Of a stretch of 64,000 nt of DNA, positions 21,474 to 64,000 are shown piece by piece. The position numbers and the translations under genes are program-made. The DNA is taken from the NCBI GenBank assembly GCA_965644265.1, contig OZ286472.1, forward strand, positions 53,382,001 through 53,446,000, given 5' to 3'. The DNA is from Glycera tridactyla (taxonomy: Eukaryota). Below the pieces are notes generated by a model that saw nothing but the letters and a program-made list of their open reading frames with translations, searched no databases and was not told the DNA's origin. Numbering within the stretch: the first letter of the stretch is position 1; every line of letters starts with the position of its first letter.

Positions 21474-23475
21474 TATGTCTGAACCACTGAGTTTTCTGAA
21501 ATTCTCCATGATGATGGTGATCACGATTTTTCATGTGCACATCTTGGAGGTCATCAGAACTATTGATGTCTACAGTGTGCACTGTCAATCAGCAAAAATG
21601 ATTGAAATTACTAGGTTTTTGCTGAACTCCAGAACATAGGTATGAGTTCCAGAGTGCAAATCTCAAAATTCCAGTATTTTTCCAGAACAATAAAGTGAAA
21701 AACATGTTTTCCACAACATTTCAGGTATAGGTAATGAATTCCAGAACATTTCCAGAGTCTGTGCAAACCCTGAGGCAGGAGGCAGAAAGAGTGTATTTGA
21801 TAGCAATATCGTACATAGGAAATTCTATAAAAATGTCTCTTGAACGCAATGTTGATCCCTCCTTTTAAGAATAGACCTGATACATGGGATGGAATCAAAC
21901 ATCCAAGAATTGAAGCATGGGGAGACCATTGCCATCATTACATTTTTGTGCAGGAGCAATGAAACAAAAGATTGCACACAAACAATGGAAAAGAAAATGT
22001 GAAATCCTTGTCAAAATAGAGAGCAAGTCAGTGGGGTGAACCATGAAAACGAAGACTGAAAGACATCCACACATTTATTGAGTCAACCTGAGTGTGATTT
22101 CTGGTACTTTCAACAGTCAAGTGCTAACAACCAGTTGTTAAAATTAAGAGTGTAGAGAGATCTCAGGGAACACAGTAGAGGGGTCACTAATTGTAGCTGA
22201 TGATTCTTTGAAATAGATCAAGAAACCGATCATTGATTACAGATCTAGTGAAATCTGTGACGAGTGATTGCCCTAAATGTGAACAAAAAGTGCTATAAGA
22301 AAACGGAGGCATGGTATGACAGAGAAGTGACATGGAACTTTCGGCTTAATGCCAAAATAATTCACTTGTCCACACCCAATGATTCAGAGAAACCTGCGAT
22401 GAGAGACCACATTAAATGACACCGAAATATAGTTTCAGAGGTGGTCTCTTATCTGAGGTACAGTATACGTCAAATAAAAAAGCTGCCCCAGGGAAGCGTT
22501 CTCTTGTCAAAGGTGGACTTTCATCACAAATTCAAACAAAATAGTAATCCTGAGAAATTGATCTATTGAAGGTGGTGTTTTTAGAGGTCTCTTACACATT
22601 TCACTGTATCTGGCTACATGGGTATCAACACATAACAGGATGGGAGGAGGCAGATGAAAAAAAGGTGGGAAAAAATAAGATGCAAATGAATCACATCACA
22701 CCAACAAGATATTCATCCAAAAGAATATACACAGAAGTATACATCCCACGATGAAACAATTTTGCAACTTCAGTGAAGAAAGAACGGAAAGCTCGTCAAA
22801 TCTCAACAGAGGATCCAATTAGGAAAATCTCCCAATAAGAAAATGGAAAAACAAATTTGAGGGATGAGTCCCGGATTTAGTTGGCTGGAACCAATCAGCC
22901 GACAGTGCAATATCACAGAATTCAGTCAAAACATGAGTTGAACACTAATTCATGGATACTCAATCTGACCACCATACCAGTTGATAATACTGGAAGATCA
23001 AGTCCACATCAGCAGAATCCTTGTAAACAGCCCCTGTGATGGGCAAGCACCATACATTCTTCACAACTTTGTCTCAAGAGAGATGCATGCAAGTCACGGC
23101 TGTATTTGTAAAGGTATGACGAGAGAATGTTCTTGAAAGAAAGCTTGATTATCACAGGTACAGTAATTTCCACTATTTTTGTGACCCTCGTTTTTTTGTG
23201 ATCTTATCGGCCAGAACGTGAACATGGCTCATTATTTAGAGTGAAGGACATGTGCTATCAACTTTCGCTACTGTTGGTCATATACACAGCCGTCATCATA
23301 TAGAGCTCTGTGAAGACTGCAGACTGTACTTATTAATACTGGCGACATTACCTTCAAAGCACGACTTCCAACCATACACAATGTAACCAGTGTAGGGGAT
23401 TCTTCATATGTGAGGAATCACAATTGCGTCATCAAAGGAAAGTGTTCTCACACAGAGCGACTTGTGTCTTTCTTA

Positions 23476-24477
23476 GGGCTATTCCATTTATTAAGGAGTG
23501 GGGGGGCCGGTCTGGAACCGAAATGAAAAAGCGGGGGTGGGGGGGTCTCTGAAAAATCGAAAGCGGGGGTGGGGGGGGGGGGGGTCTCAGAAAAATCGAA
23601 AGCGGGGGCGATATTAGGTGAAAATCGAAAGCGGGGGGCGATATTAGGGGAAAATCCGGAAGCGGGGGTTGGTGATGATCGGAAAAATTGGGAAGCGGGG
23701 GAGAGGCGGAAATCAGAACTTTCGTGTTGAAAACCGACCAAAAACACCAAATCCGGCGACTATTAGTCAATATATTGCCGTCTCTTCGACGTGGCTCGTG
23801 TTCGTCATGGGCGCCGCCATCTTGGTTATCAAATCCAAGTCGGCAAACCGTGACATTTTTTCGATGGGCACATGAATAATGCGATAAAATGCCCGCAAAA
23901 TGGCGGATCCTCTTGTAAATGGCGATTAAGTGACAGAAAAATGTCCAAAATCGAAAAATGCGATGAATATCAACGAAAGGAACCGAAAATAATTTGTCAC
24001 GCTGGCGGCCACGTCTTCTGTGTATCACAGGCGCTGGCGGATTCGGCCGCCATCTACCGGCGGAACCCGGAGTTGTCGACGCGAAACACGAGATGGCGGG
24101 TCGAATTATTCGAGAAACACGTGTTCGGCACGCAGACCGCCATCTTGAATGCAAGCACGATTCTAGCGCGATTTTTTTCATTAATCATGGATTCTTGGGA
24201 TAAAACGCTGACAGATTCCAGATCATCCTTGTAAATTGCGATTGATCATCAGAATAATGTCAATTATCATGAAATTTGACGTATTTGTCATCTCAGCCTC
24301 GTTTTCGGGAAGCGGGGGGGGGGGGGGGGGGGGTGTCGCTTTCGGAAACCAGCGGCGAAAAATTAAAAAGCGGGGGTGGGGGAGGGTCAGAATAATCAAA
24401 AAGCAGGGGTGGGGGGGGGGGTGTAATTTTTTTTGGCTGACCGGCCCCCCCCCCACCCTTTTTAAATGGAATAGCCC
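23476..24477. mobile_element. PIF/Harbinger-type MITE (~1 kb)
   Basis: TTA|GGGCTATTCCATTTA ... TAAATGGAATAGCCC|TTA; perfect 15-bp TIR and 3-bp TSD; subterminal AAAATCGAAAGCGGGGG tandem repeats. Confidence 0.9.
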
Positions 24478-45230: not shown

Positions 45231-45334
45231 GTAAGTAGGTTAGCCAAGCATAACCACCCAACACACCAAGGAAGATGATTAATTCTGTTGTCCACGCTCC
45301 ATTCCAGCATTGCACTCTCATCTTCAAATGCCGT

Positions 45335-46375
45335 CACTCACTCATTCCTCCACTCTCCCCTTATCTCCTTCACTCACTCACCCACTCCTTCTCTCACTCA
45401 TTTCTCATTTCCTCCACTCACTCACTCGTCCACTCAGTTACTCACTCACCCAACAACCCACTGACTCACAGGTACTTCACTCACTCCTTATCTCTTTCAC
45501 TCACTCCTTATCTTCTTCACTCACTCACTCCTTATCTCACTCATCTCTTCACTCACTTACTCCTTCTTATCTTCTTCACTCAGTCACTCACTCATACCTT
45601 CACTCAGTCACTCTTCATACTTCACCCACTCACACATTCACCCTCTCAATCAATCAATCAATCAATCAGTCTGTTACTCACGCACCCAACAACCTACTCA
45701 CTCACTCCTTATCTCTTTCACTCACTTCTTATCACCTTCACTCCCTTCTCTCACTCATCCCTTCACTCACTCCTTATCTCCTTCACTGAGTCTCTCACTC
45801 ATACCTTCACTCACTCACCCCTTCACACTTTCACTCTGTCAATCAATCAATCAGTCAGTTACTCTCACACCCAACCACCTACTCACTCACTACTTATCTC
45901 TTTCACTCACTCCTTCACTCACTTCTTCTCTCACTCATCCCTTCACTCACTCCTTATCTCCTTCACCCAGTCTCTTCCTCATACCTTCACTCACTCACCC
46001 CTTCACTCATGCACCCCCTCACCCAACCAATCATTCAATCAACCACTCCTCCTCTCTTTCACTCACTCTCTCCTTCACTCATTCATTCCTCCACTCAGTC
46101 AGTTACTCACTCACCCAACCACCCACTCACTCACTCACTCACTCTTTCACTCACTTCTCAACTCTTTCACTCACACTTTTTCTCCTTCACTCACTCCTCC
46201 ACTAACTTACTCTTTCACTCACTCCTTATCTCCTTCACTCAGTCACTCACTCATCCCTTCACTCATTCACCCTTTCACTCACTCACTTACTCACTCACTC
46301 ACTCACTTATTCACTCACTCACTCACTCACTCACTCACTCACTCACTCACTCACTCACTCACCCCTTCACTCAGT
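45335..46375. repeat. Degenerate (TCAC)n low-complexity array with higher-order units
   Basis: CACTCACTC repeats; CTCACCCAAC..CTCCTTATCTCTTTCACTCAC blocks recur about every 190-240 bp. Confidence 0.95.
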
Positions 46376-47307
46376 CAGAATAGATCTTGGGCAGTATTTG
46401 CTTGCTGGGTGAGACGTTCATTCGGAAATGACAAAACATTATCAAAATACAGTAACTACTTCCTACATGTACAATACATTTGATATAGTTGTATGTCACT
46501 GATCAAGTAAAGTGGTAAATGCTTAAGCTGTTTGAGAGGTAAGTACAGATGATATCAAGGGAACTATCTTATGTAGAAATGAAATTCACAGGAACTAAAT
46601 ACTCAAAAACAATAGTCAATGTGTTCAAGCTATGTGATTTTTACCTCGCCTCGACGAAGTCGAAGAGAGGTAATGTCCTCGCATCAGCGTCCGCGTCTGC
46701 GTCCGCGTCCGCACTGCTGCAATGTTTTGTGTCAAAGTTTTACGTCAATGTTTTTTTCAAAGTTTTTCTCTAACCCTTCTACCATCATCAGATCTTGTGC
46801 ACATGTGCTATAATACCTCAGGAATGATATAAAGAGGGCACTTTTACCACAGTCCACTGCATCAAAGTTTTACGTCAAAGTTTTTCATGGGAGTCTCTAG
46901 CTCAGCAACTATGGCCCCGACCACCACCAGATTTCAGACACACATACTCCTGAGTATTGGGAAAAGTGTCCATCCATTCAGCCAGCATTATACCAGTTTT
47001 ATATCATATTTTTGGCTGAAAAATGCATATTTTTGGGGTATGGACTTGCGTCAAAGTTTTAAGTCAAAGTGTTTCATGGAAGTCTCTAGCTCAGGAACTA
47101 TGGCCCCTACAAGCACCAGATTTCATACACACATACTCCTGAGTATTGGGAAAAGCGCCCATCCATCCATCTAGCATTTTACCAGGTTTATACCATATTT
47201 TTGGCTGAAAAATGCATATTATTGGGGATATGGACTTCATGTCAAGAGTCTGTTAGAGTCAGGTAACTCCACAACTGTGGCCCCTACCATCACCAGTTTT
47301 CATACAC

Positions 47308-59714: not shown

Positions 59715-60410
59715 TAATTGATGGACATTCTTGTGATGGACAACTGGACCCACAACAGATCGTCTGATGAGAATGATCTAACTAGGATTGACTGAATACA
59801 ACGCTGCTGTAGATGGATGTGAATTATGCGATAAAGATTTTGAAGATTTATGGGGATTTTTACAATGAACAGTGATGCATCATCTCCAGAATGATGATGC
59901 ATCCCGGGGACCCTGACTGACTGTTCAGAGTAGGTCATGTGATGCATCACGTGAGTCCAGATATAGAAATACAGTGTCAAAAGTGCTTTTCATATATCAA
60001 ATAGCTATGTCATTCACATGTAATAATAATAATAATAATAATTCACACTTCTTTATTCCACGCTTCAAATTTCTGAGACCTCTCTAATCTTCAGATTTCC
60101 AGAGGCCGCGTGGCAACAGCCACTGTTCATTCGCTAGGGTGCCACTAGTTACAATGTCTTGATCATATGTAGTATGACAGAGATACCTTATCTCGGGAGT
60201 ACTAGACAAAATTGAGAAGGATTAGTACAAACAAACAAAATAGTGTCAAAAGACCAGATGGGTTACATTCATGTTACCTCCAATTTCTTTCAGGTCAGTC
60301 GTTACTAAAAATATACACAGTCCAGTGACTGCCAATTATGGAAATGATTGATTCTGATGAAAATATTGAGATAGCAATGAAATTGCCAGATTTTACAAAA
60401 AGGACAGGAG

Positions 60411-63392
60411 TTATACGAAACCATAGATTGTCAAATATGACCTTTTGAAAGCTTTCGTGTCATCAATCGTACGCAGCTGGTCTGGTAGGCTATTCCAGGT
60501 TTCTGGGGCACAAACATAGAAGGATCTTCTTGCAAACTCTGTGCGTGCAAAGGGTACATGAAGATTCTGCCGCGATATTGATCTAGTTGCCCGATCAGAT
60601 GTGTGGCCAGTCAGTAATAATTTTGAACAGATTGAATTGGGTAATTTATTTTTGATAGCATTGAAAACCATGGTTGCAAAATGAAAATCTCTTCTTTTTT
60701 CTAATGTCATGAGTTTGGTTGTATTTAGCAATTGATGAGTAGGTGTCAGTCGGGGTGCCTTGAGAATATAGCGACAGAATTTGTTTTGCAGCACTTTGAG
60801 AATAGTAAGATTTTCGGTCGATGCATTTCGATATAAAACATCTCCATAATCAAATACTGGAAGTACTATACTCTTATATAGAACAATACATTGGGGAATA
60901 GTCAGATATTTTCTCGCTGTCTTAATAATTCCTAGACGTCGATTGAGTTTCGTGCTGATCTTTGCAATATGTTCCCCAAATGTTAGTTGTGAATCTAACC
61001 AAATTCCCAAATACTTGTACGTACTGACCTCCTCTACGAGTTCGCCATTGATCCTCAGTTCAAGGTCTGTAAATCTATAGCGATGAGTGAGAGTACAGAA
61101 CCTCATGACCTTGCATTTTGCTACATTGAGTGTTAACAAGTTTATCCGGAGCCAGTTGACAACCCTGTTCACATCAGAAGTAAGCTTATACATTGCTTCA
61201 TCGACAGTAGGAGCACTGAAATAGAGAGCCGTATCATCGGCGTATAATGAGATTTTGCAGTATTCTAATATTGAAGGCAGATCATTCATATATAGTATGA
61301 ATAATAAGGGCCCAAGGATTGAGCCTTGGGGCACCCCAAATTCAATCACAGATAGGTCTGATAATACGCCATTCACCTTAGTGCGTTGTTTCCTTTCACA
61401 TAAATACGATTGGAACCATTTCAAAGCAGAGGCTGAAAGACCAAGTCTTTTCAGTTTGGAGAGGAGGTGCACACGATCAACCGTATCGAACGCCTTTTTT
61501 AAATCTAAAAATAGGACTATTGTTATGGAACCTTCATCCGTAGCAGCATAAATGTTGTCTGTTAGTTCTATGTTCGAAGTCATAGTCGAGTGTTTCTTTC
61601 GAAAACCAGATTGAAATGGTGTAATTTGATGATTATCTTCCACGTATCGATACAGCTGATCATGTACACCTCTCTCGAGCATTTTGAGAGGTAGCGGTAA
61701 CACTGAGATTGGTCTATAGTTGGACGGTAAAGTCGGTACCCCTTCTTTAAAAAGAGGTGTTACCAAAGCAACCTTCCAGGATTCAGGGATGACTGAGTGC
61801 TCGATAGTAAGATTAATAATGTATAAAAAAATCGGGCCTAGAATTGCTGCAGAGCATCTCAGTATTCATGCATTAACACCTTCTATTCCCGTGTTTTTAT
61901 GAATGGGCAAAGTATTGAGGGTCTTTATAATATCATCCAAAGAAATTCCTTGTAATATAAGAGGATCAGCCCCTCCTATAATAGGTGTTCGAGCTAGTGG
62001 ATCATCAGGTTGAGGGACCAATTTTGCCAGTTTTGAGCCGGTAGCACAGAAGCATTCATTGAAATAATTTGCAGTTTCTTTGGCTGATTTCCCTTCCGTA
62101 GGAATATCTCCTTGATCTCTAGTCTTAGGAAGAAATTCTCGTATGGCTTTCCAGAGTCCATCAGGGTTACCGGTGTTTGACGATATCTCGTGTTGATCGA
62201 AATCTCTTTTAAGTGATGCTGCCATTGTGTTTGCTAAATTGCGGAAATAACACATTCTGACACGGTCTTCCAGTTCATGTTTGCGTCTGAATTTTTTAGT
62301 GAAGTGGTCATGATCATGGGCTACGGCGATATATTCATCATTTATCCACTTGGCATTCTCTTCTCTAGCGTACATTTTTTTCATGGGTGCATGAAAATCT
62401 ATAATCGGTAACAGTAAATCGAGGAAACAATTCCAGGCTTCAGTTGGGTTCATAGTCTCATAAATTTTGTCCCAGTTTACTTGCCCAAGATGTGCGGAAA
62501 AGCTTCTCTGATCGAAATTCTTGAAGGATCTGGCATAGATTGGTCTTTTCTTAATCTTGGGTCGCGTGTGTTTTCGATTACATGCTATCAATGCGTGATC
62601 ACTCAGACCGATATGCGAAGTAGTTGCTGCTGTTACTATTTCAGTCCTATTCGTAAGGATGATGTCGAGGCTACTGCCAGAGTCATGTGTGGGTCCATGA
62701 ATCAAGTTTGTTAGTCTATTTACCATATTGAACTTATTTAGTTTCTTGGAATCTGCGGTGTTCGAGCGCATGGTATTTATATTAATATCGCCCATAATGT
62801 AGATTTCTGCATTTGAATGACTTGAATTTATTATATCTATAGTTTGATCAAGCAAGGCTAGGGCTTCATCAATGGACCCAGTTGGAGGGCGGTAAATATT
62901 GAGTATATAAATCGGTCTGGTGTGCGGAAGACTTATTCTTATAGTTTGCAGTTCAAGATTATTAGTTATGCAGCAATGCTCATGAAGAATATCATATGGA
63001 AGATCCCTATTGATGTACATGATTAGTCCCCCGCCCCTGTTCACATTTCTATCAAGTCTAAATATATTATAATTTTGTACCGAGATTATTTCATTGCAGA
63101 TTGTTTCGCCCAACCAAGTCTCACTGAGACCTAGTACACTGAATCTATTTGATAATAATAAGTGCTCTATTTCTTCAAATTTGGGTAACATGCTCCTTAT
63201 ATTCAGATGTCCAATATTAACTCCTCGATTTTTAAATATCATGGTTAGATTATCAGGACTCCCCCTGGAAAAAGTATGTTCCACTCTGTGTGGGCCTGGA
63301 TTTCTCTCAATGTCCCCAGATCTAAGTAATAATATGTCTAGAGATATCTTGGGTAGGCAATTCCAGTTTTGAAGCAGATATTTATTATCCAT
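60411..63392 (-). pseudogene. LINE ORF2 (2A-like peptide + APE endonuclease + reverse transcriptase) with one in-frame TGA
   Basis: EN motifs HLNIRS, LSETWL, IYRPP, GDIN, SDH. RT motifs NYRPIS, QSGFR, LDLKKAFDTV, GVPQGSILGP, YADD (61244-61233), YKYLG. The two track ORFs are in the same frame, separated only by TGA at 61866-68. Confidence 0.95.
63291..63338 (-). other. 2A-like StopGo ribosome-skipping motif (DILLLRSGDIERNPG/P)
   Basis: Matches the D(V/I)ExNPGP consensus directly before the endonuclease domain. Confidence 0.88.
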
Positions 63393-64000
63393 TTTCAAAG
63401 TATGGTTCGTATAATAGACCTGTTTCTAGTGTCAGTTGATATCGAATGTATTTAACCCATATTGTTAGTAGAACAAAAAACAAGTCAACTATGCAAATAC
63501 GGTGTGAGATATGTGCCATAGTTCAATCGATCTTGACGATTAGAGACACAAATTTTCATGAAAATAAATTGGCTCGTAAACAAGCAAAAAACTTCAAATT
63601 CTCAGTATGGATTTAAGTAATTCTAACATGTTCACATTGCAAGGAGAGACTATCAGGTGTCATAAATGGCTAGCATTCAAATAAAATGCAATCACGTAGA
63701 AACAAATAGTATAGTTTGGACTGCCTGACAGTGTATCTGCAATATCTAATATTTAGTAAGATGCCAAATTAAACACAATGTCAGGAAGCTTAATTCAAAA
63801 AGAGTCAACAACATCAACATCATCATCTGCAAATTAATAAGAGACATTGCAGGCTGACTCGGCTCACAACCAGTCAGCTGCTTCAAATATATTAGTAGCA
63901 AGTAATAAGGATTGCAGGTTGAATCGGCTCATAACCAGACAACTGCAAGATAATGGCGATGATATTACGTAGAGACTCGTCTCGCATCCAATGCTCTGCA

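Follow-up and report, generated by a model that had tools for sequence, protein, structure and literature searches.

A 2A-like peptide at the start of ORF2 in an intron-bearing LINE family of Glycera tridactyla

A stretch of 64,000 nucleotides from Glycera tridactyla (contig OZ286472.1, positions 53,382,001 to 53,446,000; hereafter, the window) carries a retrotransposon ORF2 that opens with a peptide resembling the stop-go 2A peptides of viruses, and the locus raises the question of whether such a peptide would act in translation and why a LINE should carry it. The peptide is encoded on the minus strand from the ATG at 63392 to the end of the Pro codon at 63291, and the plus strand over the same region is interrupted by stops. 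The ATG is the first in-frame Met because an in-frame stop lies 11 codons upstream of it, and its context is strong, with A at −3 and G at +4. The leader consists of 33 residues up to the Gly, followed by the Pro. Residues 26–34 of ORF2 form the class A core G-D-(V/I)-E-x-N-P-G-P as GDIERNPGP (63317–63291), which places the Pro 28 residues ahead of the first strand of the endonuclease, and four Leu residues at positions −19 to −10 provide the Leu-rich run upstream of the core. The first-pass annotation had placed the peptide before the endonuclease, and this is borne out by the matches to PF03372 and PF14529, and then PF00078, found downstream in frame in the order APE endonuclease, then reverse transcriptase (RT). 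The peptide at this locus is a real, non-chance member of the class A 2A-like motifs. The features of the ORF2 region are as follows.

60021–60410, minus strand: 3′ UTR, with AATAAA at 60057–60052 and an (ATT)n tail at 60042–60021, common to the siblings
60411–63392, minus strand: ORF2, 993 codons in intact siblings, with one in-frame stop in the window copy
60999–61727, minus strand: reverse transcriptase domain (PF00078)
61866–61868, minus strand: in-frame TGA that breaks ORF2, also present in one sibling, L023
62595–63206, minus strand: APE endonuclease domain (PF03372)
63291–63392, minus strand: ORF2 leader with the 2A-like peptide (Met plus 32 residues, then Pro)
63291–63317, minus strand: 2A core GDIERNPG/P, with the predicted skip site between 63294 and 63293

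The copy in the window is dead, with a 5′ truncation and one stop codon. Its 5′ end lies near G000:C34:53447500, ~1.5 kb past the end of the window and inside the ORF1 intron region, and because the truncation falls after ORF1, the copy lacks both ORF1 and the splice donor. Beyond the window it keeps an esterase exon of 239 codons without a start codon of its own (G000:C34:53446446-53447167), together with the splice acceptor AG of that exon (G000:C34:53447168-53447169). The genome search returned at least 19 other long matches with 89–97% identity to this family. An unbroken ORF2 of 993–1003 codons is present in four of the 11 long copies, and the family therefore moved recently. An (ATT)n tail follows ten of these 11 copies, and 5′-truncated copies also occur. 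A microsatellite 3′ tail and 5′-truncated copies are traits of the CR1-group LINEs (CR1, L2, Crack, Daphne and Kiri), and the window family displays both; the nearest ORF2s from outside the genome are 24–40% identical and mostly unnamed. The sequence CATG occurs soon after the tail in four of ten copies (L021, L024, L027 and L028), a possible weak target preference, and no target-site duplication was seen at the 3′ junctions of these ten copies. Elsewhere in the window, the long open frames at 45254–46483 and 23432–24184 derive from simple or Pro-rich repeats and are probably not genes.

Full-length siblings of the window copy, ~7.55 kb in length (L027, 1952–9511), reveal the layout of the complete element: an ORF1 of 437 codons from its Met, a GDSL/SGNH esterase open frame of 256 codons, a spacer of ~1.05 kb and the 2A-bearing ORF2. 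Sequence searches with ORF1 against Pfam and the PDB gave nothing meaningful beyond weak coiled-coil matches. The structural model consists of a disordered stretch over the first 200 residues, a coiled coil, an RRM and a C-terminal domain, and the ten best matches in the fold search were all to human L1 ORF1p (E 3.8e-6). On the basis of the model, ORF1 conforms to a type II (L1-like) ORF1p. In a profile search, the esterase matched its counterpart in ZfL2-1 ORF1 (4c1b) with an E-value of 0.0018. The esterase of the window family keeps the catalytic Ser, Gly, Asn and Asp-x-x-His residues and is under purifying selection (pN 0.027 vs pS 0.129), yet no AUG precedes its catalytic Ser. Esterase homologues from outside the genome numbered only four, all without context. 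In three distant families (L137, L139 and L140) the catalytic Ser or the Asp-x-x-His has been lost and the splice acceptor has been kept, and the esterase folds of these families are likely to be non-catalytic. A related esterase frame at L135 (G000:C18:32646811) has an upstream Met and no in-register acceptor and lies beside a helicase-like frame; no ORF2 match was found within the 9.8 kb examined there.

The AUG-less esterase frame is joined to ORF1 by a GT-AG intron of 1.0–1.3 kb across families, whose removal fuses the first 134 ORF1 codons in frame with the esterase exon; in the window family the intron is 1283 nt long and the spliced frame comprises 373 codons. Similarity between the esterases of different families sets in with a pyrimidine tract and a YAG that lies two bases ahead of a Trp codon. 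This acceptor is in register in 31 of the 34 distinct esterase starts, at 29–100% protein identity, and the other three comprise one gap-shifted acceptor, one processed copy and one unexplained case (L135). In the genome-wide pattern of esterase starts, 64 have AG and three have another base before the G. The donor, a single phase-1 G|GTAAG, is present in all 12 of the intact ORF1s from esterase families and in none of the six ORF1s from esterase-less families, and its phase matches that of the acceptor. Two copies from different families, L116 (= L181) and L182, are missing precisely the stretch from GT to AG (1023 and 1196 nt), such that ORF1 is fused in frame to the esterase, and they therefore provide direct evidence that the RNA was spliced and copied back into the genome. 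Among the genome copies, only these two processed ones display the splice. The third non-AG start (L183) was rejected as a processed copy, as it aligns to neither reference and the control gave two chance matches, and a match between L156 and the 5′ portion of L124 was discarded, since no ORF1 lies in that portion. Thin contig cover of L027 from four sequencing runs, whose RNA origin is a guess, includes two contigs that cross the esterase acceptor unspliced, no splice joint, and two contigs that cross the ORF2 start.

Since the ORF1 stop lies inside the intron, the RRM protein and the esterase products are mutually exclusive, and a single gene is likely to make either one or the other. With two processed as opposed to 64 unspliced esterase starts, the main template would seem to be unspliced RNA. 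In the mechanism that we propose, the unspliced RNA would yield an L1-type RNA chaperone and would also serve as the replication template, and the spliced RNA would yield a 373-residue esterase isoform. Both RNA forms would keep ORF2 behind the 1-kb spacer, and ribosomes would reach it by restart or internal entry. The part of the spacer that falls in the window contains the following features.

63385–63519, minus strand: upstream ORF of 44 codons, its stop overlapping the start of ORF2 (ATG-GA-TAA); a stop-restart candidate
63393–64000, minus strand: the window part of the AU-rich spacer, which extends over ~1.05 kb in all between the esterase stop and the ORF2 start
63652–63729, minus strand: spacer element with invariant complementary ends, common to three families
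from about 63859 onward, minus strand: one unit of a 174-bp duplication

The spacer of the window family contains 25 AUGs. In 13 of the 15 copies checked, the 44-codon upstream ORF terminates across the AUG of ORF2, and its changes are five synonymous and four non-synonymous (p 0.04); it was not seen in the sister families and is specific to the window family. The element at 63652–63729 could serve as a signal for entry into ORF2 or for exporting the unspliced RNA. The length of its inner hairpin is highly variable among the three families, its stem displays no covariation or compensatory change and gives z-scores of −0.1 to −2.5, and we therefore do not claim it as a structure; an Rfam search of the retrotransposon returned nothing near a family threshold. 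The families L037–L040, L053, L056/L061 and L042 have no in-frame AUG before the 2A. Among them, L037 has GTG at the position where L034 has ATG, and a GUG start is plausible in this AUG-less family.

We searched the 2.04-Gb genome (207 contigs) with a coding pattern for GD(V/I)ExNPGP. The search yielded 608 exact matches in many codon variants, as opposed to none for the reversed control. Among the first 30 of these matches, 29 run straight into the first strand of the endonuclease, and the remaining one is a disrupted copy from one of the same families. Conservation across family copies had been set beforehand as a test of the motif, and of 20 loci taken from the window family, 17 extend to the motif and 16 of these have it intact. 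Between eight families, the 2A core exhibits saturated synonymous sites (pS 0.86) and no amino-acid change, a zero that arises partly by construction because the alignment rows were located via the motif. Outside the core, positions −10 to −1 are hydrophobic and 25% identical between the eight families, and identity falls to 8% at positions −25 to −11, where pN/pS is 0.99, so that neither identity nor pN/pS between families gives any sign of a role for the leader outside its last ~ten residues. In a comparison of the window copy with L027, the 25-codon leader has four non-synonymous and two synonymous changes and the core is unchanged. Leu at −19 to −10 is absent in two of 18 2A families, and ORF1-like frames lie upstream of ORF2 in most of the 2A families examined. 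Among 86 ORF2 homologues from outside the genome, four have the strict motif at the N-terminus, 19 have a looser motif and 63 have no 2A.

Two further arrangements of the motif were observed. In the family of L087 and L088 (G000:C1:110342847/110343177 and C4:5280046/5280376), a single ORF2 frame contains two 2A motifs spaced 330 nt apart, and the intervening stretch appears to hold an incomplete repeat of the beginning of the endonuclease. At L150–L155 and L167 (e.g. G000:C28:96634456), at least seven near-identical 2A copies have a frame of 183–186 codons that breaks early in the endonuclease, and this short-frame element is possibly a non-autonomous family.

The distribution of the 2A among related elements bears on its role. 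We constructed an RT tree of 35 rows from the best single alignment piece per locus, with five short rows omitted and a midpoint root without an outgroup; the rows without an esterase had been picked through the 2A motif. The esterase families join with a support of 99/97, and 12 esterase-less rows fall outside this group. Within it, a 2A clade of ten rows (support 100/99; seven canonical motifs, one with a Gly change, one remnant and one in which none was seen) is sister to a 2A-less clade of 13 rows (support 100/98). The simplest reading of these sequences would be a single loss of the 2A rather than two gains. The Pro lies 19–29 residues before the first strand of the endonuclease in 18 2A families (of 19 put in), and the leader that precedes it varies in length from 25 to 184 residues and lacks an in-frame AUG in four of these 18. 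In the 2A-less clade, a Met lies 18–26 residues before the first strand in ten of 11 loci (~7 families). The 2A-less sister clade thus starts ORF2 with a Met at the matching place, which makes it likely that the 2A trims variable leaders. Counting against trimming, many of the 2A-less ORF2 homologues from outside the genome have long N-terminal extensions, and the literature searched yielded no paper in which an N-terminal extension or tag harms a LINE endonuclease or ORF2p.

Taken together, we favour, with moderate confidence, a reading in which the window holds a 5′-truncated copy of a recently active LINE whose conserved 2A trims the leader and limits ORF2p, and whose ORF1 and esterase are switched by the intron. 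Some ribosomes would stall and skip at the Gly-Pro junction, cutting off the variable leader, and whichever point of the frame translation starts from, skipping would leave the endonuclease with the short N-terminus that 2A-less relatives obtain from their Met; a lower ORF2p yield would be a side effect of the 2A. Somewhat more tentatively, three proteins may come from one RNA, with the intron switching between RRM chaperone and esterase, the 2A fixing the N-terminus of ORF2p and one clade using a Met instead.

Whether the peptide would skip can be gauged from published activities. Snell and Matreyek (2026) tested 3,271 eukaryotic 2A-like peptides (PMC13405545), among which 34 LRSGD peptides comprise 24 non-skipping, seven skipping and three fall-off, and the six peptides closest to that of the window comprise two skipping and four not. 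Four of the 17 DIERNPGP peptides were classed as skipping. Several Leu residues at −19 to −10 are a trait of the active classes in that work, and the four Leu residues of the window peptide are within the active range; the Arg at −10, also present in the window peptide, is a mark of a mostly inactive subgroup. The exact window 20-mer was not found in the four text files of PMC13405545. Because these classes were machine-assigned from 20-mers in human cells, they lower the odds of skipping without settling them. In PMC3708506, active 2A peptides are reported in L2, CR1, Rex1 and Ingi elements, and several CR1 peptides with good motifs are nearly inactive. By analogy with these data, clear skipping of the exact window peptide in a standard reporter would be possible though somewhat doubtful, and skipping by the window peptide would probably be partial. 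The release of a 33-residue leader, a Pro-initiated ORF2p and a tuning of ORF2 yield, as proposed in the first-pass annotation, would be plausible outcomes. The window 2A adds one peptide to a known class, its own activity being uncertain, and the proposal in the first-pass annotation that it might furnish a new 2A tool is weak in view of the 24 of 34 published LRSGD peptides that do not skip; as a tool, it is a poor prospect.

An alternative, which we consider unlikely, is that the 2A acts only as a throttle, in which the Leu-rich helix and NPGP stall ribosomes or cut the yield, and selection acts on something other than the release of trimmed ORF2p. In PMC13405545, 59% of the tested ORF2p-linked peptides lowered protein levels and ten of the 17 DIERNPGP peptides are in reduced-protein classes, and down-regulation is the model of PMC3894237. 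These reduced classes hold only two of the 34 LRSGD peptides, however, and the model of PMC3894237 was built for elements without ORF1, whereas here ORF2 is already preceded by ORF1, an esterase exon and 25 spacer AUGs. A pure throttle also does not explain why the 2A-less clade has its Met where skipping would leave the Pro.

Still less probable is the absence of any recoding, with GDIExNPGP retained in a fused protein as a structural loop, a binding motif or a weak relic. The mostly non-skipping behaviour of the tested analogues (PMC13405545) and the 13-row clade that lacks the motif altogether would agree with this. Against it, the full viral consensus is accompanied in at least 18 families by a hydrophobic run ahead of it (positions −10 to −1, 25% identical), the peptides of L2, CR1, Rex1 and Ingi elements include active ones (PMC3708506), and the non-skipping calls carry the limits of 20-mers, human cells and machine-assigned classes.

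We attach very little probability to a role as polyprotein separator, in which a second splice would fuse the ORF1 N-terminus or the esterase to the 2A-ORF2 frame and the 2A would split the fusion, as in viruses. The element already splices, the AUG before the 2A is missing in four of 18 families and a phase-1 TAG located 68 nt before the core is common to two families. However, this shared acceptor was rejected with a matrix score below zero, and in-frame phase-1 acceptors score at most 7.2 in 26 loci vs 10.1–18.5 for the esterase acceptors, which formed the training set of the matrix and were thus scored in-sample. Moreover, of 52 candidate copies with no esterase close by, 51 lack the join (a weak test for families without a full-length reference), the processed copy L116 retains the entire spacer, and the longest ORF2 frame among 150 matches is at most 1082 codons. 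We know of no use for a secreted ORF2p, which counts against the least probable alternative, namely that on failed skipping the leader acts as a signal peptide that sends the fusion to the secretory path: the N-terminal place and the hydrophobic run would suit such a role, for which sea-urchin NLR 2A leaders provide a precedent (PMC4981915), but the run is short and broken by Asp and Arg and the leader varies widely in length.

The favoured reading, of a trimming 2A in an intron-switched LINE, combines features that are known from separate systems. That the class itself is known was already stated in the first-pass annotation and accords with PMC3708506, where 2A-like motifs are described in the ORF2s of APE-type non-LTR elements. 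As in the 2A-bearing APE-type elements L1Tc, Ingi, Rex1, L2, Crack and CR1, GD(V/I)ExNPGP lies at the N-terminus of ORF2, directly before the endonuclease. Odon et al. (2013; PMC3708506) described 2A-like peptides of varying activity in Rex1, L2, L2A, Crack, CR1 and Ingi elements, and as in that work, many 2A families occur within one animal genome; unlike its ~50 elements, which mostly lack ORF1, the window family has a 437-codon ORF1 and an esterase exon. Luke et al. (PMC3894237) proposed that the 2A takes over from ORF1 in restraining ORF2, elements with both being intermediates. A 2026 preprint reports 330 reverse-transcribing contigs with a class A 2A (10.64898/2026.09.24.754024). The peptide itself resembles those of PMC13405545 in its Leu-rich helix followed by GDxExNPGP and in its ORF2p context, and its C-terminal 14–15 residues are near-identical to those of tested peptides.

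The proteins encoded upstream of ORF2 also have counterparts. Like the type IV ORF1p of ZfL2-1 (PMC3905857, PDB 4c1b), the window family has an SGNH esterase with its catalytic set. Type IV ORF1p is a single ORF with the esterase behind a coiled coil (PMC3905857), whereas here the esterase is an AUG-less exon and the spliced form has no coiled coil. According to Schneider et al. (2013; PMC3905857), no Repbase esterase ORF1p has an RRM, and the two are suggested to exclude each other; unlike those elements, the window family also encodes an RRM ORF1p. This ORF1p resembles the human LINE-1 type II ORF1p (PDB 2ykp and 2yko) in its disordered N-terminus, coiled coil, RRM and C-terminal domain, and differs from it in that the disordered part carries a conserved splice donor, which appears as a Gly-Lys island when the sequences are aligned. 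Spliced retrotransposon RNA has been copied back to the genome here as in human L1 SpIREs, which are dead ends that encode a non-functional ORF1p (PMC5860796); unlike in SpIREs, the splice is in frame, persists among families with as little as 29% protein identity and contributes a coding exon under selection. The family also resembles the intron-bearing Penelope-like elements, which are copied from RNA, contain a spliceosomal intron and have been called exceptional for retaining introns (PMC4209133), although Penelope elements are not LINEs. No mention of splicing was found in the available text of Metcalfe and Casane (PMC4120745) or of a 2026 survey of the CR1 group (PMC13343379), and the available parts of PMC11203168 and PMC4091050 contributed nothing further. 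The full-text literature searched, which did not extend to Repbase Reports and most subscription journals, contained no description of this layout of a LINE intron, splicing and an esterase. The family is a new LINE variant that bears an intron, probably has alternative ORF1 products and retains a 2A alongside ORF1.

LINEs replicate via RNA, and introns are therefore expected to be lost from them. Against this expectation, the family keeps an in-frame coding intron across members that are only 29% alike. Alternative splice products offer a possible answer to why the esterase and the RRM are never found in one ORF1p, and mutation of a single splice site would be a direct way to test the function of a LINE esterase. 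The sister clades with and without the 2A offer a natural comparison for asking why LINEs have a 2A at all. The coexistence of the 2A and ORF1 speaks against the 2A as a substitute for a lost ORF1, contrary to the published correlation, and the family context matters more than the 2A peptide alone.
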